Counted from the stretch's first letter, positions 1,902 to 49,139 are shown. The stretch: 64,000 nt of DNA from Bacillales bacterium UBA4682 (GCA_002404995.1 DHKY01000014.1:7524-71523), one strand, 5' to 3'. Program-made: numbers and translations. Notes: generated by a model from the sequence alone, not told the origin.

Positions 1902-2126
1902 TTTGAGAAATCTTCTTTATAAAAGGTTCATGTGGTAAACTAATTATGCAGCCAACGAATCTTCAAGCTTCCGGGTTTGTGGAAGCCGACGAGCCAATCT
2001 TCTGTAATGCTATTAAGAGGATTACCCATTAGAGGTTCATAGCGATAGGTCGCTCTATCAGCTTGTCAAATGCATTCTTAAGCTGCAGACAGGAGGAAGA
2101 GTCTTTTTGCGTTCCCAAAACGCATT

Positions 2127-3059
2127 ATGAAGACTTCAGAACAAACTATGGATCTCAACAGAGAGACCGCTATGCGACTTTGGAATAAGCGTTATGGCAA
2201 AGCGACCACCGTGAAGGATTTCACTGGTCGTGAAATGGCCAAGGGCGCTTATAACGACCGCAATAGCGCAAAAGGGTGGAACGTAGATCACATCCTACCG
2301 CAAAGCAAAGGCGGTGCTACGGCCGAGCACAACTTGGCCATCTGCAACATTCAAACTAATGACGAGAAGGCGGATAAGTTCCCGAGCTTTAAAGCAAACG
2401 GAATCGTCTTTGATATCGTCAAAGTCCAGAACCATTACGAATATCGCAAACGCGAAGATTCTCCGAAAGTGGAAGAGGACGACGGGGATGTCAACTTCAT
2501 GGATTCCGCTTCCGGAATTCGCTTCTTTAAAGATTTGAAAGGAATCCAGAACAAGCCACGTTTTGTAGGTTCTATTCTAATCAGACTCAAGAATGTCGAG
2601 TCTACAGCGTTAATCGACATGATTGAAAAGTACTTCGACAAAGAGAACATCTCTTACTCTATGAGCAAAGCTTATTGCTCCGACGTAACCAGAATCATCG
2701 CCAAAAACTACAATATGCCGTTGAAAGATGATATTTCTGAACTACTTGATAAATGTATCGTCCTCAACACCTATTTGGGGCATTACTTCTTACCGATGAA
2801 ATATATCAGTGGTTACGATATTATTTTTAGAACAGATTACTTCGAACAGAAAGAGGAAATGTACATCAAGTCCCAAGGAATTGATTTCAGAGAAATCGAA
2901 AACACTGGATTCGACAATAAGCTGTTCATCAACTATATGGTTTGGAACAACAGCGAAGCCAAGGGGAAGATGCAATTCGACTCTTCTGGTTACGAAGCAT
3001 ACGATTACGTCTATACGGAATTAGCAAAAAACTTAGATAAGGAGGTTAATAGGGAGTAA
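2127..3059 (+). CDS. HNH-nuclease-domain protein. The HNH motif is N-terminal and is followed by a ~220-aa C-terminal domain of unknown function.
   Basis: GWNVDHILPQSKGGATAEHNLAICNIQTNDEKAD is a His-Me finger/HNH signature. The ORF is intact at 310 aa. Confidence 0.7.
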   Translation: MKTSEQTMDLNRETAMRLWNKRYGKATTVKDFTGREMAKGAYNDRNSAKGWNVDHILPQSKGGATAEHNLAICNIQTNDEKADKFPSFKANGIVFDIVKVQNHYEYRKREDSPKVEEDDGDVNFMDSASGIRFFKDLKGIQNKPRFVGSILIRLKNVESTALIDMIEKYFDKENISYSMSKAYCSDVTRIIAKNYNMPLKDDISELLDKCIVLNTYLGHYFLPMKYISGYDIIFRTDYFEQKEEMYIKSQGIDFREIENTGFDNKLFINYMVWNNSEAKGKMQFDSSGYEAYDYVYTELAKNLDKEVNRE

Positions 3060-5713: not shown

Positions 5714-5861
5714 GAGAAGGTTAAACAATAGTGTTCCCAGTTCTCGGGCGCAGTATAATTCCTGTATTACGTTGCTGTAGTTCCGAGGCCGGCCTCAGGA
5801 TGATATAGAAGAAAGATTATACCGCATGCTGAGGATAGCAACGCTATTGTTTATCCTTCTC
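5714..5861. mobile_element. MITE-like element B (148 bp), the minimal member of the same terminal-inverted-repeat family. It contains the palindrome GAGGCCGGCCTC.
   Basis: Terminal inverted repeats TTGAGAAGGTTAAACAATAGTGTT / AACGCTATTGTTTATCCTTCTCAA. The first ~65 nt (as reverse complement) are ~90% identical to element A's left end. The core is shared with element C. Confidence 0.55.
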
Positions 5862-7347: not shown

Positions 7348-9162
7348 ATGGATGTAAACGCAGAAAAAATGAATTTCGATGTCAATAGTGTAAGTGTTGG
7401 CACTCTTCTTGGGTATGTTGAGGACAATACAATTGCAATTCCTGAAATTCAAAGACCTTATGTGTGGGAGGCTAAGCAAGTTCGTGATTTGATTGACTCT
7501 CTTTATAAAGGATATCCAATCGGATACATTATCACTTGGAAGAATCCTAACGTGAAGCTTAAGGATGGCTCAACGTCTGAGGGGAAACAAATTCTTATTG
7601 ATGGCCAACAAAGAGTCACTGCCCTTTCAGCGGCTCTTCTTGGAAAAGAAGTCCTTGATGCAGAGTACAAAAAGAAACGAATCAAAATCTCTTTTAACAT
7701 TAAGACCGAAACATTTGATGTTTGCAATCCTGCCAAGGAAAAAAGTCCGGAATGGATTTCGGACATTTCCCGTTTCCTCAAGCCTGGATTAGTGAATATG
7801 TATGAATTTTGTGGAGAATACGCGAAAATTTCTGGACTTGATGCCAATACAGTGAACAACAGAATATCCCGCCTTCTGAGTATTAAGGAATCGAGAGTAG
7901 GAAGAATTGAGTTATCTTCGGAAGCTGACATTGATACTGTAACTGAGATATTTGTGAGAATAAATTCACGTGGAAAGTCACTTTCTCAAGCGGATTTTGT
8001 CATGTCCAAAATCAGCGTTAATGAGAAATTCTCTGGAAATGACATAAGAAAGGCTATCGATTATTTTTCTCACTTTTTGCAAACGCCAACAGATTTTCCA
8101 CATATAAAAGATTGTGACACCGATTTTGCTTCTAAGGACATTTTCAGAAAGATGTCTTGGGCGGCTTCTTATTCAGATAATCTTTATAAGCCAGACTATT
8201 CTGACATGCTTAGAGTTGCTTTCACTTACAAATTCAAAAAAGGGAGACTTCAAGACTTGGTGAGTCTCCTTTCTGGTCGTGACTTTGAAACTAAAGAATA
8301 TAAAGAAGAGATTGCTCAGTCTAGTTTTGAAAGTCTTTATGATGGCGTCAAGGATTTTGTTAACGAAACCAATTACAATCGATACATCATGATTGTTAAA
8401 GGAACTGGAATTATAAACGAGTCCATTAAGCGGTCTCAGGGTGTTATTAATTTTGGATATATCCTTTATTTGCTCATGAAAGAGAAAAAATACCAGCCCT
8501 TTGATATTGAGAAATACGTAATGAAGTGGATTGTTTACTCTATTCTCACACAGCGATATTCTGGCTCTACTGAGACGGGTTTCGAGTACGATGTTAAGCG
8601 TTTAGATGCTTGTGGAAACATTCCCGAATATATTGATTCTCAAGCAGAAGCAGAACTTTCTGACGCTTTTTGGGAAAAGGTTCTTCCAGATCGTTTCAAT
8701 ACTTCAGTAGCTGGTAGTAGCTATTGGTATATTTTTCTTGCTGCACAAATAAAAGAAAATGATCATGCCTTTTTATCAAAAAGTAGTACTGTCAAAGACT
8801 TACTTGAGCAGAGAGGAGATGTTCATCATATTTTCCCGAAAAAATATTTGATTAAAAATGGTATAGATATTAAGCAGCGATATAATCAAATAGCAAATTA
8901 CGTTTATCTACAACAAGAAACAAATATTGCTATTAGCGACAGAGCACCCAACCAGTACTTTAAAGAATTAGAGGAACAGATAAATGGTGGCAAACAACGC
9001 TATGGATGCATACTTTCTCAAGACGAGCTGGAGGCCAATCTTGCCGAAAATGCTATCCCCTCAGGAATTCAGTCAATGGAATACGACTCATATGATAAAT
9101 TCCTTGAGGAACGCCGGAAACTTATGGCTGAAAAGATTAAGAAATATTTTCAAAGCTTTTAG
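7348..9162 (+). CDS. GmrSD-like type IV (modification-dependent) restriction endonuclease: N-terminal DUF262 (ParB-like NTPase/nuclease) and C-terminal DUF1524 (HNH/His-Me finger).
   Basis: N-terminal IAIPEIQRPYVWE...LIDGQQRVTAL (DUF262 motifs). C-terminal DVHHIFPKKYL...NYVYLQQETNIAIS (DUF1524). Confidence 0.8.
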   Translation: MDVNAEKMNFDVNSVSVGTLLGYVEDNTIAIPEIQRPYVWEAKQVRDLIDSLYKGYPIGYIITWKNPNVKLKDGSTSEGKQILIDGQQRVTALSAALLGKEVLDAEYKKKRIKISFNIKTETFDVCNPAKEKSPEWISDISRFLKPGLVNMYEFCGEYAKISGLDANTVNNRISRLLSIKESRVGRIELSSEADIDTVTEIFVRINSRGKSLSQADFVMSKISVNEKFSGNDIRKAIDYFSHFLQTPTDFPHIKDCDTDFASKDIFRKMSWAASYSDNLYKPDYSDMLRVAFTYKFKKGRLQDLVSLLSGRDFETKEYKEEIAQSSFESLYDGVKDFVNETNYNRYIMIVKGTGIINESIKRSQGVINFGYILYLLMKEKKYQPFDIEKYVMKWIVYSILTQRYSGSTETGFEYDVKRLDACGNIPEYIDSQAEAELSDAFWEKVLPDRFNTSVAGSSYWYIFLAAQIKENDHAFLSKSSTVKDLLEQRGDVHHIFPKKYLIKNGIDIKQRYNQIANYVYLQQETNIAISDRAPNQYFKELEEQINGGKQRYGCILSQDELEANLAENAIPSGIQSMEYDSYDKFLEERRKLMAEKIKKYFQSF

Positions 9163-9325
9163 TCTTCCAAATGTTTGACGAGACTATGTCCGCTTATAAG
9201 GCCAATTATCTGATATACTCATAAGTGCCATCTTCATAACCGGCAACAGGACGTCGGTTGTTGAGTAGTCATTTGAAGGAAAATCACGTATAGAGGCTTC
9301 TTTTTTCCTTTATGGCGCGCTGAAA

Positions 9326-10765
9326 ATGACAATAGGGGGATTTATGGATATTTATGAGAAATATAAGATTCATGTAATTAACGGTAGACGTTACTACGAA
9401 TATAACGTGGATGAAAAGCTCCCCTTCCTAGATAATACGATTCCCTATTATTTCAAATACAATGACATTGAAATCTACGATAACCGATGGATGTTTTTGG
9501 CTTTGAAGCTCGTTCAGGAATTGGATAAACGGAACCCAAAGACGGATGACTACTTATTAGGCATACGATATAGCTGGAGCAAGACTGACGTCTTTTCAAA
9601 AACAAAGAAGACGAATTATCTTCCTTTCAGAGATCTCTATCTAAATACTAACCATACTTCGACACACGCTTTGATGAGCATACAATGTCTTCTTCGTGCC
9701 TATGGTGTCAACCCCTCCGATTGTTTTCTCTTAATCAACCGTCATCCTGTCGCAGAACCGGTAGAGGTTAGAGATTACTTTATTGATCAAGAAAGACGCG
9801 GATTTTCCAAGGCTTTGTTGGCTAGACGTTTCAACTTTGCGAGAATAAGCAAGATTCTGTCCAATTTTGAGGTTATCAATAAGATACTGGCAAAGACAAC
9901 GCCGAGTTTTGACAACTTCTATCTTTTTGATGATTACAATTATTTCACAAACTACAAATGCAAAGTCATTGAAAAGGCTGAGATGGTCTATCAAGACAAG
10001 CCGCAGAATATCGTGCTGATTAAGAAATACCTCGACTATTACGATGATTATCTGAGAAACAAGAAGTTCTTCCAGGAATACGATAGCAAAGCCGTGTCCA
10101 TGGAATTCGAGGAACAGATCAAAAAGGAAATCGAATACCTGTTCTCCTCTTTGAAGTCCACAATCATCACTTCCTCTAAGATTTATTCACGCCTGAAGCT
10201 TTTGTATCCTGAGCAAATGAACCAGATAAAGTTCCTCGGCACCCCAAAGGATCTTTTCGAATTCCTTAAACTGAATTTCAACAACACCTACTATTTTCAG
10301 GAGCCTTATATTTCAAAGACTCCGATTTCGAATCTGACCACAGATGAAATCACCACGAACTATGCCTACTCATTGGATGGGTTCGATATCCGGAAACTCA
10401 ATGATTACGCTGACAAGATGCACATCAAACGCATCTCTAATTATTTGGTTTTCATCATCGATTCCTCTGAGGATTACGTCTTAGTCGGGCAGGGCATAAT
10501 GAAAAAGAAATCCCTACTTGATATTGATGACTCCTATTTATCAGAACTTGGCGATGCGCTTTCCTTCTATATCAATAGCTATGGAACTATCGATAGCCGG
10601 ACATACAAAGGATATTCATCCCTCCCTCAACCAAAGATTAATCAGAAAATGGATAAGAACCTTCTTTTTGGTTTGGCTTTATCGTATCTGAAGGACAAAT
10701 TCGATGTGGAGAGTCTAGGCGGAAAATACAAGGACTTTGAGTATCTAATAAAGGCTAAGAAATAA
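9326..10765 (+). CDS. Hypothetical protein (479 aa) with no recognisable motif, immediately downstream of GmrSD.
   Basis: Long intact ORF, Lys/Tyr/Asp-rich, same strand as GmrSD and 160 bp downstream of it. Confidence 0.5.
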   Translation: MTIGGFMDIYEKYKIHVINGRRYYEYNVDEKLPFLDNTIPYYFKYNDIEIYDNRWMFLALKLVQELDKRNPKTDDYLLGIRYSWSKTDVFSKTKKTNYLPFRDLYLNTNHTSTHALMSIQCLLRAYGVNPSDCFLLINRHPVAEPVEVRDYFIDQERRGFSKALLARRFNFARISKILSNFEVINKILAKTTPSFDNFYLFDDYNYFTNYKCKVIEKAEMVYQDKPQNIVLIKKYLDYYDDYLRNKKFFQEYDSKAVSMEFEEQIKKEIEYLFSSLKSTIITSSKIYSRLKLLYPEQMNQIKFLGTPKDLFEFLKLNFNNTYYFQEPYISKTPISNLTTDEITTNYAYSLDGFDIRKLNDYADKMHIKRISNYLVFIIDSSEDYVLVGQGIMKKKSLLDIDDSYLSELGDALSFYINSYGTIDSRTYKGYSSLPQPKINQKMDKNLLFGLALSYLKDKFDVESLGGKYKDFEYLIKAKK

Positions 10766-10848
10766 TAAATACAAAATATTTGCAAAATATTACGAAACTA
10801 TTGCCATTCATATGGCTGCTTTTGTATAATCTTTTCGGAGGTTGGAGC

Positions 10849-11076
10849 ATGGAAAACAAGAAAGAGAACTTCAAGCGCATCTCCGAAAACCGAGTTTCGA
10901 AGATCTTAGTGCTACTCTCTCAGCTAACCAATTTGAGCAACTCTTCTTATTACGAATACACGGATGAGGACATCGAGAAGATCTTTTCGGCTATCGAAGA
11001 AGAGACAAAAAAATCCAAAGAGCTGTTATTGAAAGGAAAGAACAACAAAAAGCGCCAGAAACGCTTTGAGTTGTAA
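10849..11076 (+). CDS. Small hypothetical protein (75 aa).
   Basis: Start chosen at the ATG preceded by GGAGGTTGGAGC. It is 13 bp upstream of the GHKL gene's RBS. Confidence 0.4.
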   Translation: MENKKENFKRISENRVSKILVLLSQLTNLSNSSYYEYTDEDIEKIFSAIEEETKKSKELLLKGKNNKKRQKRFEL

Positions 11077-11091
11077 GAGGAGGACATTTAT

Positions 11092-11970
11092 ATGGATGGA
11101 TTGAAATGGAGATTCCCTGCCGCTAACCACGGCGAAAAAAAGGGAATCAGTTCAGGGGACGCGGAAGCCTTCCGCAAATTCCCTTACCAGGCCTTTGCGC
11201 GAGAGATTCTTCAGAACTCTATCGACGCGAGAGCTTCCGACGAAGAACCGACACGGGTCGAATTCGCTTCTTTCGAAATAAAGAAGGAAGATCTCCCAGG
11301 ATATGCTGATTTGGAAGCCCAAGTGCGTCGCTGCAAAGAGTTCTATCAATATAAGGAAGAATATAAAGAGGCTTACGACAAGATCCTTTCGGTTTTCGAT
11401 AAGGAAACTATCCAGTGTCTCCGCGTCAGCGACTACAACACCAGTGGTTTAGTCGGCGTCGATTCCAACAGCTTGAAGGGAAACAAATTCAATGCCCTTG
11501 CCAAGGGAACAGGCCTTTCTGAGAAGAATGGCTCCCTGTCCGGCGGTTCAAAAGGCGTTGGAAAGAATGCAGCTTTCCTCATGTCTAAGATCAAAACGGT
11601 GTTCTATTCGACCAATGCTAATCAGGACACGGATGGGAATGCCTCTACTCATTTAGGATACATGGGCGTTTCGAACCTTGTTTCCGGTTGGATTGATGAA
11701 CAGCATAAGAACCCTGGAGATGATTACACTCAGGGAACTGGATACTTTTCCTCAGATGATTCAAATGATGCAATTCCCAGTGTATTGGATTTGGACCCAT
11801 CTTGCCACAGAAGAGAAAACCAAAGCGGAACGGATATTTATATTTTAGGGTTCGAGCCAGAATCGGAATGGAGAAACGAAATCATCTGCAGCATCCTGGA
11901 TTCGTTTATGGCTGCTATTACACGCAATCATCTATTGGTCTCCGTTGATGGCCGAGGGAATACTTCGTCG
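11092..11970 (+). pseudogene. GHKL-superfamily (HATPase_c, Hsp90/MORC/sacsin-like) ATPase, N-terminal part only. The ORF runs out of frame into a Fic C-terminal fragment.
   Basis: N-box EILQNSIDA, G1 box DYNTSGL, G2 box GSKGVGKNAAF. Homologous sequence ends around 11970, where frame +2 begins to encode unrelated Fic sequence. Confidence 0.55.
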
Positions 11971-11974
11971 CCCC

Positions 11975-12391
11975 GTTTTGTATCTGTCGTTGTACCTGAA
12001 AGCAAATCGTGTCGAGTATTACGACAGATTGAGTGAGGTCCGTGCCAAGGGCAACTACGAACAGTGGATCAAATTCTTTTTGCGCGGGATTATCGAAACT
12101 TGCGATGACGGCATCAAAACAATTGGAAAGATAAATTCGCTTGTCCGGTCGGACGAAGAAAAGCTTGCCAAAAAAGCCAAAACGGTTTCAATGGTTTTCG
12201 ATTATATCAAGCAGCATCCGATTATTTCTATCGGTGGAGCCGCAATCGCACTTGGGCTGTCCTACAATGGCGTATCCGGTGCAGTCAAAAAGATGGTTGA
12301 AGCTGGCATACTAAACGAAATCACGGCAAAGACCCGAGACCGGGTTTTCGAGTATTCGGGATATATCGATATCTTAAAATCGGGAACTTAA
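11975..12391 (+). pseudogene. C-terminal fragment of a Fic/DOC-family protein (winged-helix tail). The Fic catalytic core is absent.
   Basis: PVLYLSLYLKANRVEYYDRLSEVRAKGNYEQWIKFFLRGIIE... matches the conserved Fic C-terminal module (PILYLSRYI..NR.EYY..L......W..FFL). No upstream HPFx(D/E)GNGR region is present. Confidence 0.5.
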
Positions 12392-12479
12392 TACGCAGGG
12401 GCAACCATCGTTAACCGTTGACATCTCTCTTCCCTAACCAAGGGAAGAAAAAGTTGCTTCGATTACTCCGGCAATCGGA

Positions 12480-13130
12480 TTCTAGTTATGCTCCATCCTA
12501 TGCCGGAAAAGGACCTGTCCAGCCATCCCTTCTGGATCCCTCGGGACTTCTTCAGAAACCACTTGAAGTCGGAGAACAGATGACGAAGAGCTCAAAGCCT
12601 TCTCTTTCAAGGTCGTTGCTCCTTCGGAGTTCCCTTCCTGCTGTGATTGAAAATCCCTTCGCGTCAGCGCGTTCATGGATGACGGAAGTCCCCCTGACGA
12701 ATCCGGTCCTTCCACGCCTTTCTCAGCGGCTCAGCAGTCGGATGGCCGGTCTTGGCGATGTCCTCCTTCTGCGAGGATATACCAAATTTCTTTCCCTTCT
12801 CCTTCGTCTTTCTGCTCAGTCCTACATATAGGTCCCATCCACCTCTGCCTTTCCCAAGGAGACCGAAAACGTATGTCCACACTTCTTGCAGAGTTGTTTT
12901 CCCTGTCTTTGCCCGTAGCAGACGACCCTGCGCGAATGGCAGTAGGGACACAAATTCGGCTTCCTGCCGTTGACAACAGAAAGGAATCCGTCTCTGGCCT
13001 TCCGCGACTGGTATCTTCCGAGTGCGGAAAAAACGGCGACTATCATATGCGATGCTCCCGAGGGTTCCGGAATTCGAGGAAGCGGGAGTATCGCTAAATA
13101 TCTGCCTCTTCGGATTTCGGAACACTTATA
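12480..13130 (-). mobile_element. Degraded IS1595-family transposase remnant (N-terminal zinc ribbon is intact, the rest is frameshifted). The segment is GC-rich relative to its surroundings.
   Basis: Minus-strand ORF 13046..12822 encodes CPYCHSRRVVCYGQRQGKQLCKKCGHTFSVSLGK, i.e. Zn_Tnp_IS1595 (CPHCGS...C..CG..FSVTSGT). Multiple overlapping short ORFs and a local GC jump. Confidence 0.45.
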
Positions 13131-13254
13131 TTTAGCGAATCCTTTATAGCACAGGAAAGAGATACCAACACTTAACCAGGAATATATTAAAGCATACTAA
13201 AAACCCTCCTTTTTCATGAATTTGAGCAAAAGAAAAGAGCCCATGATTTAAAGC

Positions 13255-13713
13255 GAAGGATAAACCATAGTGTCCCAGTCCTCGGACGCAGTATAATTCC
13301 TGTATTACGTTGCTGTAGTTCCGAGGCCGGCCATGGGCATCGCCCGAAGCAGCACGGAAGAGAACACGGGAAATAAATATGGGTGTGCCATGGCTGCAAG
13401 AGGATATTCTCGGACAAAAGCTGCACGAGCCTGTCCTATACCAAGCTGAAAACCTCGCAGATCAGGATGCCCCCTGTTCATGATCTCGGAAGGGCCGACC
13501 CTAAGATAGGTGCTCACCAAGCGCATGTGTCATCTTCTGCGGAAGGAGTAAAGGCAGAAAATCCGGAAAACCGCCGGGAACAAGGTGATACTCCAACGGA
13601 GAAGTTGGGGACTTGTCGGGACATGCGCTTGATCTACCGATTGATCTTCTTTCCGGTAAAACATTCAGAAAATGGGGAGTATTTGGCCATTAGCAGCACT
13701 ATTGTTTGTCTTC
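13255..13713. mobile_element. MITE-like element C (459 bp) with the same terminal-inverted-repeat family (GAAGGATAAACCATAGTGTCCC ... GCAGCACTATTGTTTGTCTTC).
   Basis: The left ~75 nt are near-identical to element B (CGCAGTATAATTCCTGTATTACGTTGCTGTAGTTCCGAGGCCGGCC). The right ~60 nt are similar to element A's right end. Confidence 0.5.
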
Positions 13714-13852
13714 TAATTGATATTATATGTAAGCATCATTTTATCAGTTGAATAGCTCAACAATCATTCCTTTACAAAAGATAACAGCTAAACTAACATC
13801 AATAATTATGAAGAGAACAAGACAATAGTACCGACACGAAAAAGAAGAAATT

Positions 13853-14121
13853 ATGGCTACAGCAGATCTCACTGTAGAATTGGACGATGACTTAAAGAAA
13901 CGTTCTGAGGCATTATAGGATGAACTTGGGATTGACCTAACCACGGCTATCAATGTTTTCCTCCATAAATCCATAGCTGTAGGTGGTTTTCCCTTCGATG
14001 TAAGAATCGAGGAACCCAACAAGAAGACAACGCTTGCTTTGCACGAGGCAGAGAAATTAGCCAAAGCTCCTGGTATCAAGGACCTTAACGCCGAAGATGC
14101 CTTAAAAAGCCTTAAGAAATA
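13853..14121 (+). pseudogene. RelB/DinJ-family antitoxin gene with an in-frame TAG at codon 22.
   Basis: MATADLTVELDDDLKKRSEAL*DELGIDLTTAINVFLHKSIAVGGFPFDV... is the RHH DinJ signature. TAG is at 13916-13918. There is no toxin ORF downstream. Confidence 0.5.
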
Positions 14122-14239
14122 AACAGGAAGGTTGTATAGATATCTCGTTTCAAAAAGGACTATAAGCGGGGCCATCTCAATATAAACCTTTACATAACGC
14201 CATAAGTCCAAAATAGAATTAATATTGCAAGAAATAAGA

Positions 14240-14377
14240 TAGATGACAAAGGAACACTCTTTCTAGGCTTAAAGGAATTCCTTATCAATCCAGATTCCAT
14301 AAAATCCTAAAAGATCTTTTAAAACCACATTTGTTTTCTAAAACATAAAATTGCAAGAACTTGCAAAAATTTTAGTT
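14240..14377 (+). repeat. 138-bp direct repeat, identical to 15637..15774. It consists of the last ~38 codons of a COG1373 ATPase gene plus ~65 bp of 3' flank, including the palindrome TTGCAAGAACTTGCAA.
   Basis: Exact duplication. A third copy of 'TGCAAGAACTTGCAAAAATTTTAGTTA' at 14413..14441 sits between a TATATAAT box and the RBS of the ATPase gene. Confidence 0.8.
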
Positions 14378-14453
14378 ATAAATCTTTTTTGGCTTCTTCA
14401 AGTTATATAATAAATGTGCAAGAACTTGCAAAAATTTTAGTTAGGAGGCAGAT

Positions 14454-15704
14454 ATGATTGAAAGAAACGAATATCTGAGAAAGCTCATTGACCGAATGGG
14501 AAATGGAAGGATCAAGGTAATCACTGGCATCAGAAGATGCGGTAAATCCTATTTGTTATTTGAAATATTTTATAACTATCTGCTTGAAAACGGGGTTGAT
14601 AAGTCACATATCATCGCTTTACAACTAGATGACAGGCTGAATATCAAATTCCAAAATCCAGAATATTTGTGTCAATATGTTCATAATCAGATTACTGACG
14701 ACGGGAAGTACTATATACTTTTAGATGAAGTGCAATTCGTGGATCATTTTGAAAGGGTTTTGAATTCTTTCCTGCACATCAAAAACGCAGATGTTTATGT
14801 GACTGGAAGCAATGCGAAATTTCTTTCTTCGGACATTATTACTGAATTCAGAGGAAGAGGAGACCAAATTTATTTATCGCCGCTGTCTTTCAAAGAATAT
14901 TATGATTATTGCAAAATAGATTTTGATGATGCGTGGAATGAATATTCCATGTATGGAGGCATGCCTTTTCTTTTGACTTGCAAAACAGACGAACAAAAAG
15001 TTCATTATTTAGAAAACCTTTTCACTGAGACCTACATAAAAGATATTGTCAATCGTCACAATATCCGAGACACCGACGTTTTAGAAGATGTCCTGAATAT
15101 TGTTTCTTCAAGTGTCGGTTCATTGACAAACCCTAATAAGTTATCGAATTCATTCAAATCTATCAAGAGCATCGATGTGGCACCTAACACAATCAAGCAA
15201 TATCTTGATTATTGCATTGACTCCTTTTTGTTGCAAAAAGCATACCGGTACGATGTCAAAGGAAAGAAATACATTGACACGCCTTTAAAATACTATTTCA
15301 CCGATATAGGCTTAAGAAACGCAAGACTAGGATTCAGACAGCAGGAAGAAAACCACATCATGGAAAACATCCTATTTAACGAATTGGTAATCCGTGGATA
15401 TAAAGTAGACGTTGGTGTTGTAACCACCAGTGAAAAGAACCCAAATGGTAACTATGTAAGAAAAAACCGAGAAGTTGATTTTGTCTGTAATCTCGGATAT
15501 GAGAGATACTACATACAATCCGCGTTTGCTCTCGATGATGCAGAAAAGAAAGAGCAAGAAGAAAAATCCTTGCTGAATATCCATGACGGTTTTAAAAAAA
15601 TCATCATTGTAAGAAATAACATCAAGAAATGGATAGATGACAAAGGAACACTCTTTCTAGGCTTAAAGGAATTCCTTATCAATCCAGATTCCATAAAATC
15701 CTAA
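14454..15704 (+). CDS. AAA+ ATPase of the COG1373 / AAA_14-DUF4143 family (P-loop ATPase fused to a C-terminal PD-(D/E)xK-like domain).
   Basis: VITGIRRCGKSYLL Walker A at the N-terminus. C-terminal NREVDFVCNLGYERYYIQSAFAL (E.D..-type nuclease-fold motif). Paralog of 34833..36068. Confidence 0.8.
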   Translation: MIERNEYLRKLIDRMGNGRIKVITGIRRCGKSYLLFEIFYNYLLENGVDKSHIIALQLDDRLNIKFQNPEYLCQYVHNQITDDGKYYILLDEVQFVDHFERVLNSFLHIKNADVYVTGSNAKFLSSDIITEFRGRGDQIYLSPLSFKEYYDYCKIDFDDAWNEYSMYGGMPFLLTCKTDEQKVHYLENLFTETYIKDIVNRHNIRDTDVLEDVLNIVSSSVGSLTNPNKLSNSFKSIKSIDVAPNTIKQYLDYCIDSFLLQKAYRYDVKGKKYIDTPLKYYFTDIGLRNARLGFRQQEENHIMENILFNELVIRGYKVDVGVVTTSEKNPNGNYVRKNREVDFVCNLGYERYYIQSAFALDDAEKKEQEEKSLLNIHDGFKKIIIVRNNIKKWIDDKGTLFLGLKEFLINPDSIKS

Positions 15705-15774
15705 AAGATCTTTTAAAACCACATTTGTTTTCTAAAACATAAAATTGCAAGAACTTGCAAAAATTTTAGTTAGA
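15637..15774 (+). repeat. Downstream copy of the 138-bp direct repeat (3' end of the ATPase gene + flank with the TTGCAAGAACTTGCAA palindrome).
   Basis: Identical to 14240..14377. Confidence 0.8.
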
Positions 15775-15963
15775 ATGCTTGTCCTCAAAGAAAACTGCCG
15801 ATGTTGTCAGAGAGGGAACTGACGCAAATTTCACCAGTCCCTTATCCTGTTATGCGAGGAATGCACTTTAGTCTATTATTTGCACATATAAAGCACACGT
15901 TTAGCTACCTTCATTTCCCTCGAATCGTATAATGAAGTCAGATACAAGTAAGGAGGCATATAT

Positions 15964-48978: not shown

Positions 48979-49139
48979 CCATTGACTCTTTTCTTTCTAC
49001 GACTATAATTCTCAATCGGAAATGATGTCTTCCAGATATAGGGTCTGCCTATATCAAACCGCTTTGGATTATAAAGCTGATGACGTCTATGCTGGTTTTC
49101 AGCATAGAGGAAATCAGCTTTTTTCATAGGAGGTAGAAG

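Follow-up and report, generated by a model that had tools for sequence, protein, structure and literature searches.

A truncated GHKL ATPase cassette in Bacillales bacterium UBA4682 and its intact six-gene relatives, a candidate methylation-guarded defence system

The DNA considered here is a 64,000-nucleotide stretch from Bacillales bacterium UBA4682 (GCA_002404995.1, DHKY01000014.1:7524-71523), referred to below as the window and numbered from its first letter. In its left part, a gene for a GmrSD-like type IV restriction enzyme is followed on the same strand by genes for a 479-amino-acid (aa) protein, a 75-aa protein, and a GHKL ATPase. An original prediction made from the DNA had proposed that these four open reading frames (ORFs) form one candidate multi-gene defence module, and all four were found at the positions that it gave (7348..9162, 9326..10765, 10849..11076, and 11092..12036). 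The features of the region are as follows, with g1, g2, and g3 denoting the first three genes of a cassette described below:

7348..9162 (+): GmrSD-like (DUF262 + DUF1524-like) gene, 604 aa, a defence-island neighbour outside the cassette
9206..9343 (+): left edge and leader of the cassette, where DNA homology with intact copies sets in, with a GGGGGA ribosome-binding site ahead of the ATG at 9344
9344..10765 (+): g1, 473 aa, composed of two modules; the ORF opening at 9326 would give 479 aa
10801..10830 (+): promoter-like site between g1 and g2, TTGCCA-18-TATAAT, with 11/12 matches; a consensus match only
10849..11076 (+): g2, 75 aa, helical, with a basic C-terminal tail (...KKRQKRFEL)
11092..11955 (+): g3 fragment (PADLOC PDC-M33A), codons 1-288 of a GHKL ATPase gene of ~651 codons
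11953..12036 (+): deletion junction (~11953-11957) and the 26-codon out-of-frame tail of the g3 ORF; homology to loci L006, L057, and L058 ends at 11953
11945..12391 (+): C-terminal third of a Fic (SoFic-type) gene, with the first ~212 codons missing; right-hand side of the deletion

Gene neighbourhoods of related loci, cited below by L numbers, were taken from contig look-ups, from 9 genome loci, and from 32 metagenome loci. The order g1-g2-g3 was found in ~28 of the 29 loci with enough downstream sequence, followed by g4, g5, and usually g6 where the contig continues. Comparison with these loci showed window positions 9206..11955 to correspond to the left 40% of a conserved six-gene cassette. 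Thus, the part of the original prediction stating that the 479-aa, 75-aa, and GHKL genes belong together was upheld by their collinearity and by their occurrence in defence islands, but the GmrSD-like gene is no member, and the unit present is the first 2.4 genes of a six-gene cassette rather than a four-gene module. The neighbourhood comparison of 479-aa protein homologues, which the prediction had named as a check, thereby came out in favour of a conserved association. The genes of the cassette are as follows:

g1: first cassette gene, 473 aa
g2: second cassette gene, 75 aa
g3: third cassette gene, GHKL ATPase of ~650 aa, PDC-M33A
g4: fourth cassette gene, ~300 aa, PDC-M33B
g5: fifth cassette gene, ~250 aa, DUF6339, PDC-M33C
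g6: sixth cassette gene, D12-class Dam-type N6-adenine methyltransferase with a C-terminal DUF7226

The family identities of g3 to g6 were obtained from PADLOC and Pfam scans of L006, the closest intact locus, in which full-length g3, g4, and g5 match PDC-M33A, B, and C with E values of 2.6e-135, 2.5e-54, and 1.8e-40, respectively. PDC-M33B and C are present in intact relatives, including L006 and L057, and are missing from the window. For the DUF7226 part of g6, there is a weak match (E 4e-6) to a PADLOC type II restriction endonuclease model, in the C-terminal part of the latter. Profile searches of g1, g3, g4, and g5 against PDB sequences returned nothing below E 0.1. Among the hosts of the cassette are Bacilli/Erysipelotrichales, Anaeroplasmataceae, Clostridia, Metamycoplasma hominis, and Mycoplasmopsis adleri.

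The closest intact relatives (L006, L057, and L058) share ~82% DNA identity and 89-91% protein identity with the window, and this homology runs from 9206 to 11953, ending at codon 288 of the 651 codons of g3 (~11953-11955). The same end point was obtained by tblastn, in which the window g3 aligns with residues 1-288 of a 651-residue query, and by comparison with PADLOC PDC-M33A, which is matched at E 5.6e-88 over positions 3-269 of 627 only, that is, the first 43% of A. The translation of g3 diverges after ...LLVSVDG, and the next 26 codons are unrelated, being read out of frame into the Fic remnant. As for that remnant, the product of ORF 11945..12391 matches positions 213-359 of the 361 positions of PADLOC SoFic (E 2.6e-36) and, far under the cut-off, positions 212-356 of 361 of NCBIfam NF046030. 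Homologues of g4, g5, or g6 were not found by tblastn anywhere in the 64-kb window, nor were homologues of DpnM, DpnA, or any Dam-type methylase; the methyltransferase that a methylation-based self/non-self system would need is thus encoded in intact relatives and absent from the window. The identical junction occurs, at 100% identity, on four other metagenome contigs, and it therefore represents a real genomic state of a circulating strain rather than an assembly error. Overall, the alignments show a deletion that fused g3 codon 288 to Fic codon ~213, removing the rest of g3, g4 to g6, and the front of the Fic gene. Since the GHKL gene is truncated, the window copy is most likely non-functional and, as a system, probably dead, with g1 and g2 as intact leftovers.

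To the right of the junction, the segment 12400..13700 is GC-rich (~50% vs ~37-40% around it) and contains only short overlapping ORFs, without an Rfam hit or plasmid match, and a 78-bp piece of it (13255..13332) has a second copy, 94% identical, at 5716..5794. The segment probably represents coding sequence in decay or what is left of a mobile element. The segment 13833..14166 shows 73% DNA similarity to the RelB antitoxin gene region of L006, has no intact ORF in the window, and is probably a toxin-antitoxin remnant. A little further on, direct repeats of ~165 bp (14215..14381 and 15612..15775, 96% identity) flank 14454..15704, an AAA_14 + DUF4143 ATPase gene matching PADLOC PDC-S01 at E 2e-114. 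With its GC-rich stretch, RelB-like remnant, and repeats, the region 12400-14400 looks like further decay.

The call of a GHKL ATPase at 11092..12036 was correct as to the fold and the N, G1, and G2 boxes, although it was overlooked that the ORF is a fragment. The boxes comprise E38/N42/D45 (N box), D114/N116/T117/G119 (G1), and G151-G152-S-K-G155-x-G157-K158 (G2), and these residues are invariant or nearly so across two family alignments. Although g3 was undetected in Pfam and PDB sequence searches, an AlphaFold (AF2) model of residues 1-288 (pLDDT 85, pTM 0.86) gave, in a Foldseek search against PDB, 29 top matches that are all GHKL proteins (TM 0.33-0.40), the best being TRAP1/Hsp90 (E 6.5e-6), with Topo VI-B, SMCHD1, and MORC3 also present. 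The modelled protein is thus predicted to have a genuine GHKL (Bergerat) fold. In the window, only this ATP-binding domain is left, the transducer/S5-like second domain and the C-terminal region both being absent.

The 75-aa protein g2 precedes g3 in all cassette loci and is the most conserved cassette gene product, with 60-99% identity across loci in the alignment. A 98-aa form starting at TTG was ruled out, as all homologues align to the 75-aa ATG form.

By contrast with g2, g1 is the least conserved gene of the cassette (33-45% identity). Its start at 9344 is favoured by the lengths of family members, by gene calls on identical contigs, and by the ribosome-binding site. The original prediction regarded this protein as the most genuinely unknown one of the window, and this description stands: no Pfam or PDB sequence match and no significant structural match were obtained. 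In Pfam, NCBIfam, and PADLOC no family was assigned, with sub-threshold matches only to Rha, a PH-like domain, and PDC-M02B, and in PADLOC at E <= 0.01 nothing was found besides the weak PDC-M02B match. The family nevertheless contains 67 homologue clusters at 90% identity and 1099 representatives in an exhaustive profile search. In the AF2 model (pLDDT 90.6), three winged-helix-like units follow an N-half that is beta-rich and helical, and the proposed structural comparison yielded a confident model without a match at E <= 0.001 in Foldseek searches against PDB and BFVD. The weak matches are of the winged-helix type (ESCRT-II, CSN/proteasome lid PCI, SelB, and YcaQ), and for this reason no fold can be assigned to the N-half. 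A conserved NHT(S/A)xH...AEP motif in the N-half might be read as a His-Me/HNH-like or zinc site, but no structural match was found. The FLFDD...NYK motif was considered as a PD-(D/E)xK nuclease site and ruled out, since the region is helical in the model.

In the exhaustive profile search, the g1 family is divided into two modules, one at positions 1-245 and one at ~240-470. The N-half (ORF residues ~1-245, ~9326..10060) also exists as stand-alone proteins of ~245-285 aa. In six loci (L046, L048, and L052-L055), an N-half protein of ~270 aa is encoded 1-3 bp after dndE in dndB-C-D-E operons, and in L044 the gene for such a protein immediately precedes a DndC-like gene; other short forms adjoin a Schlafen-type helicase or a NERD nuclease. 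The gene following dndE, conserved in gut metagenomes (173+ clusters at 90% identity), carries no annotation. The Dnd and Ssp genes listed in one published account of phosphorothioation (PMC12914056) do not include it, and no description of it was found. Full-length g1 is located in L013 directly before an SspD/BrxP-SspB-SspC-SspA-PbeA cluster. The C-half (ORF residues ~243-476, ~10052..10753), which holds the three winged-helix-like units, forms the C-terminus of many proteins of ~770-940 aa carrying sigma-70 region 4, one of which (P0307) additionally has an RNAP alpha-CTD domain. Such a protein is part of a variant cassette (L059-L062) consisting of a D12 methylase, a g2 homologue (79 aa, 56% identity), a sigma-like protein of 770 aa, g3 (45%), g4 (45%), and g5 (62%); the match between the sigma-like protein and g1 (g1 residues 243-476, E 1e-31) is confined to the final ~230 residues of the former. 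As the variant cassette and the stand-alone forms show, the C-module travels with the GHKL/B/C core, while the N-module is exchangeable. Relatives of g1 or of the sigma-like proteins were not found in viral contigs, and sigma-like relatives were not found in phage and plasmid collections. In a further protein (P0227, 1430 aa), the complete g1 sequence lies C-terminal to a PolC/PHP-like polymerase N-terminal region; the two may truly be fused, or gene calling may have read through, as could happen in an organism that uses genetic code 4.

Disrupted copies of cassette genes occur elsewhere. L022 (~10378) and L023 (~3798) have a 1-bp deletion in g1 (AAAAGAA to AAAAAA) in otherwise intact cassettes, L001 has an internal stop codon early in g3 (9750..9980), and g6 is split in L004. 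In several M. hominis strains g1 is fragmented (147 + 347 aa, 214 + 115 aa, and 255 + 186 aa), which suggests recurrent or phase-variable inactivation. Frequent pseudogenisation of cassette members fits a costly defence element.

Genomic context and published work connect the cassette with GATC methylation. In L031 and L032, a cassette without g6 directly follows a complete DpnII restriction-modification (R-M) set (HTH, DpnM, DpnA, DpnII, and DUF7004), and in L036, from which g6 is also absent, DpnM- and DpnA-type methylases directly follow g5. The M. hominis orthologue of g1 is MHO_4740 (CAX37609.1). DAM1 of this species, a 442-aa protein (CAX37613.1) encoded in the MHO_4730-4840 locus of strain PG21, has been considered a solitary methylase with a possible regulatory role; G-m6A-TC is present in dam1-bearing strains, dam1 and a DpnII/dam2 system share one locus and are mutually exclusive, and dam1 was found in only 7% of M. 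hominis isolates (PMC10305163). The g6 product of M. hominis locus L003 is 442 aa long. In the window itself, GATC occurs 160 times vs 346 expected (observed/expected 0.46), making it the most depleted of eight 4-bp palindromes; this is consistent with past GATC-directed restriction in the lineage, and suggestive only.

Taken together, the cassette is probably a methylation-guarded GHKL candidate defence system, of which the window contains a broken, probably dead copy with the GmrSD-like gene as a separate neighbour. In the mechanism that we propose, g6 would mark host GATC sites with m6A, and g3 to g5 would form an ATP-driven DNA-handling complex, MORC- or MutL-like, acting on unmarked DNA. 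The protein g1 would dock to this complex via its C-terminal triple winged-helix module, its swappable N-terminal module would supply DNA or target recognition, and g2 may be a small obligate adaptor or regulator. Simultaneous loss of the effector genes and the methylase, as by the deletion described above, would be a survivable route to losing such a system.

Several points weigh against this interpretation. Searches of g1, g4, and g5 with Pfam, PDB profiles, and Foldseek revealed no nuclease or effector domain, and the term "restriction-like" is therefore an assumption. PDC-M33 is itself only a bioinformatic candidate, and in the literature no paper was found naming PDC-M33, DUF6339, or DUF7226. 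Full-length g1 stands beside the Ssp/BREX4-type phosphorothioation cluster of L013 without g2 to g6, and plasmids of Lactococcus and Ligilactobacillus carry distantly related PDC-M33 A-B-C sets (29% identity) that are without g1 and g2; thus, the A-B-C core can occur without g1, and g1 without the core. DAM1 appears to be g6, as inferred from length, locus, and accession adjacency rather than from an alignment. Finally, because g1 and g2 are intact in the window, a residual function of these two proteins is possible.

The reading of the original prediction, in which the GmrSD-like gene and the three downstream genes form one module in which the latter would supply a type IV enzyme with accessory specificity or anti-anti-restriction functions, has to be judged from the nature and surroundings of the GmrSD-like gene. 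Its product matches Pfam GmrSD_N at E 1e-35 and GmrSD_C at E 0.0046, the latter under the gathering cut-off, with the motif GDVHHIFPKKYL...N nonetheless visible. Both a DGQQR motif (DUF262) and an HHIFP motif (DUF1524-like HxxP His-Me) are seen in the 604-aa product, which is thus predicted to have the DUF262 + DUF1524 composition of a GmrSD / type IV restriction enzyme; in PADLOC it is closest to the candidate HEC-05 (E 1.7e-33), not to a characterised GmrSD. This gene lies on the same strand as g1 at a distance of 163-181 bp, and DUF262/GmrSD genes are also located near the cassettes of L001 and L002 (downstream) and L006 (upstream), as well as within the dnd clusters of L052 and L053. However, in the individually mapped loci (the window, L001, L002, and L006) these genes belong to different subfamilies, occur on either side of the cassette, and are sometimes separated from it by other genes, such as DUF4357 in L006. 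A census covered 98 flank ORFs, which came from 19 cassette loci of the 21 examined (the remaining 2 had no flank ORFs). In this census, GmrSD_C was matched by 4 ORFs and GmrSD_N by 3, compared with 5 for N6_N4 methylases, 4 each for D12 methylases, AAA_14 + DUF4143 (each domain matched by 4), and ResIII helicases, and 2 each for DpnII, SMODS, and DUF4357; the flanks are those of a typical defence island. Furthermore, cassette DNA homology starts at 9204-9206, ~40 bp past the GmrSD stop codon, whatever the upstream gene: in blastn, window 9204/9206..11953 aligns with L001, L006, and L057 at 77-82.5% identity in three different upstream contexts. A tblastn search with the window GmrSD at E <= 1e-4 gave no match in loci L011-L051. 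The single-module reading is thus largely refuted and, in our estimate, very improbable; the GmrSD-like gene is a separate adjacent defence-island gene and not a cassette partner.

Two further explanations concern the function of what is left and of the whole. The remnant could still be functional, with g1 and g2, maybe together with a free GHKL ATP-binding domain, serving as a regulator, a sensor, or a partner of another system in the island, such as the GmrSD-like or AAA_14/DUF4143 gene. Such a role would accord with the intactness of g1 and g2, the identical arrangement in at least four other samples, the occurrence of g1 without g2 to g6 in L013, the N-module existing as a stand-alone gene in dnd operons, and the promoter-like site upstream of g2, although the count of such sites around 10801..10830 is not above the shuffled expectation. 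The dN/dS values against L006, 0.018 for g1 and 0.005 for g2, are strongly purifying, but dS is saturated and the values reflect pre-deletion history, so that they are uninformative on current function. Likewise, the four other contigs are 100% identical to the window and thus silent on post-deletion selection. With g1 being dispensable and often lost (frameshifted in L022 and L023, and fragmented in several M. hominis strains) and with the g3 ORF ending in 26 nonsense-derived codons, a working remnant seems unlikely. For the intact cassette, a role in Dam-directed DNA repair or in epigenetic maintenance might be envisaged instead of immunity, by analogy with the action of MutH and the GHKL ATPase MutL on hemimethylated GATC: a GHKL ATPase is joined with a GATC Dam-type methylase without a recognisable nuclease or toxin, repair roles are possible for some paraMORCs (Iyer et al.; PMC2292703), and DAM1 has been regarded as solitary and possibly regulatory in M. 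hominis. However, the distribution is patchy and indicative of horizontal transfer, with the mycoplasma genes closest to those of Clostridia; the cassette sits amid R-M, CBASS, GmrSD, and Abi genes; pseudogenisation is frequent; the cassette is interchangeable with or adjacent to DpnII R-M; and dam1 is restricted to the small minority of M. hominis isolates noted above (PMC10305163). A role of this kind is therefore quite improbable, and a methylation-guarded defence system remains the preferred interpretation of the cassette.

A bolder extension of this interpretation can be put forward only tentatively. The g1-type proteins may be modular adaptor/sensor subunits of an unrecognised, DNA-modification-coupled form of immunity, in which the triple winged-helix C-module would plug into a GHKL/DUF6339 motor and interchangeable N-modules would decide what is sensed. 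These N-modules would be the domain shared with dnd/ssp loci, or look-alikes of sigma-70 region 4 and RNAP alpha-CTD, which could serve as integrated decoys for RNA polymerase-hijacking phage factors. "Orphan" Dam methylases of gut Firmicutes, together with M. hominis DAM1, would then be the self-marking arm.

Elsewhere in the window, a full-length match to the Rfam Staphylococcus-1 RNA (1952..2082, plus strand; 109.9 bits vs a gathering score of 87.7) is followed after 45 bp by an ORF of 310 aa (2127..3059, plus strand) whose product has an HNH_4 endonuclease domain, and the two may constitute an RNA-protein pair. A fluoride riboswitch (crcB motif) is present at 49009..49096 on the plus strand (43.1 bits vs a gathering score of 34).

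The window locus matters little in itself, and its value lies in the family-level leads to which it points. The window copy brings to light two unrecognised components of a PDC-M33-type system, g1 and g2, and the candidate PDC-M33 grows from three genes to a cassette of five or six, which also encodes a GATC Dam methylase, the very highly conserved 75-aa protein, and a large subunit of modular build. The presence of the cassette in the M. hominis type strain calls for the "solitary" DAM1 to be reinterpreted, and offers a tractable minimal-genome host. In addition, the domain of the g1 N-half links phosphorothioate-based and m6A-based systems, and is a conserved extra gene of gut dndBCDE operons.

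Among known systems, GmrSD / type IV restriction enzymes are represented only by the 604-aa neighbour, which shares DUF262 (DGQQR) and a DUF1524-like HxxP motif with them, its C-terminal domain scoring below the Pfam cut-off. With the Dnd system, the likeness is the homology between the g1 N-half and the ~270-aa protein encoded after dndE (six loci) or before a DndC-like gene (one locus), and with Ssp/BREX type 4 it is the full-length g1 preceding the cluster in L013; however, the window is without phosphorothioation genes, and the shared domain is not a defined Dnd or Ssp protein. GHKL ATPases of the MORC/paraMORC type are likewise encoded together with a DNA methylase, in mobile operons resembling R-M systems (PMC2292703), and ATP-driven DNA looping or complex remodelling has been proposed as the role of these ATPases (Iyer, Abhiman and Aravind, 2008; PMC2292703). 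Unlike the cassette, those operons mostly carry SF-II helicases, recognisable nucleases, and usually cytosine methylases, in place of which the cassette has DUF6339, g4, g1, and g2.

AbiR of Lactococcus lactis (pKR223; AbiRa/b/c with the LlaKR2I methylase) confers phage resistance, requires a GATC methylase, and is toxic without the methylase, with AbiRa described as a sigma-70-like protein of ~820 aa (PMC13064643). Compared by description only, AbiRa resembles the sigma-70 region 4 proteins that replace g1 in variant cassettes, and this parallel in the sigma-like protein, the dependence on a GATC methylase, and the toxicity without it suggests a common logic; AbiRb and AbiRc are ParB-like and nuclease-SNF2 proteins, whereas the cassette has GHKL and DUF6339 proteins instead. 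The closest likeness in gene content is to PDC-M33 of PADLOC, a three-gene candidate whose A, B, and C components are matched by g3, g4, and g5 of the intact cassette. The window retains the first 43% of A, without B and C, and to this core the cassette adds g1, g2, and a Dam-type methylase as conserved members.

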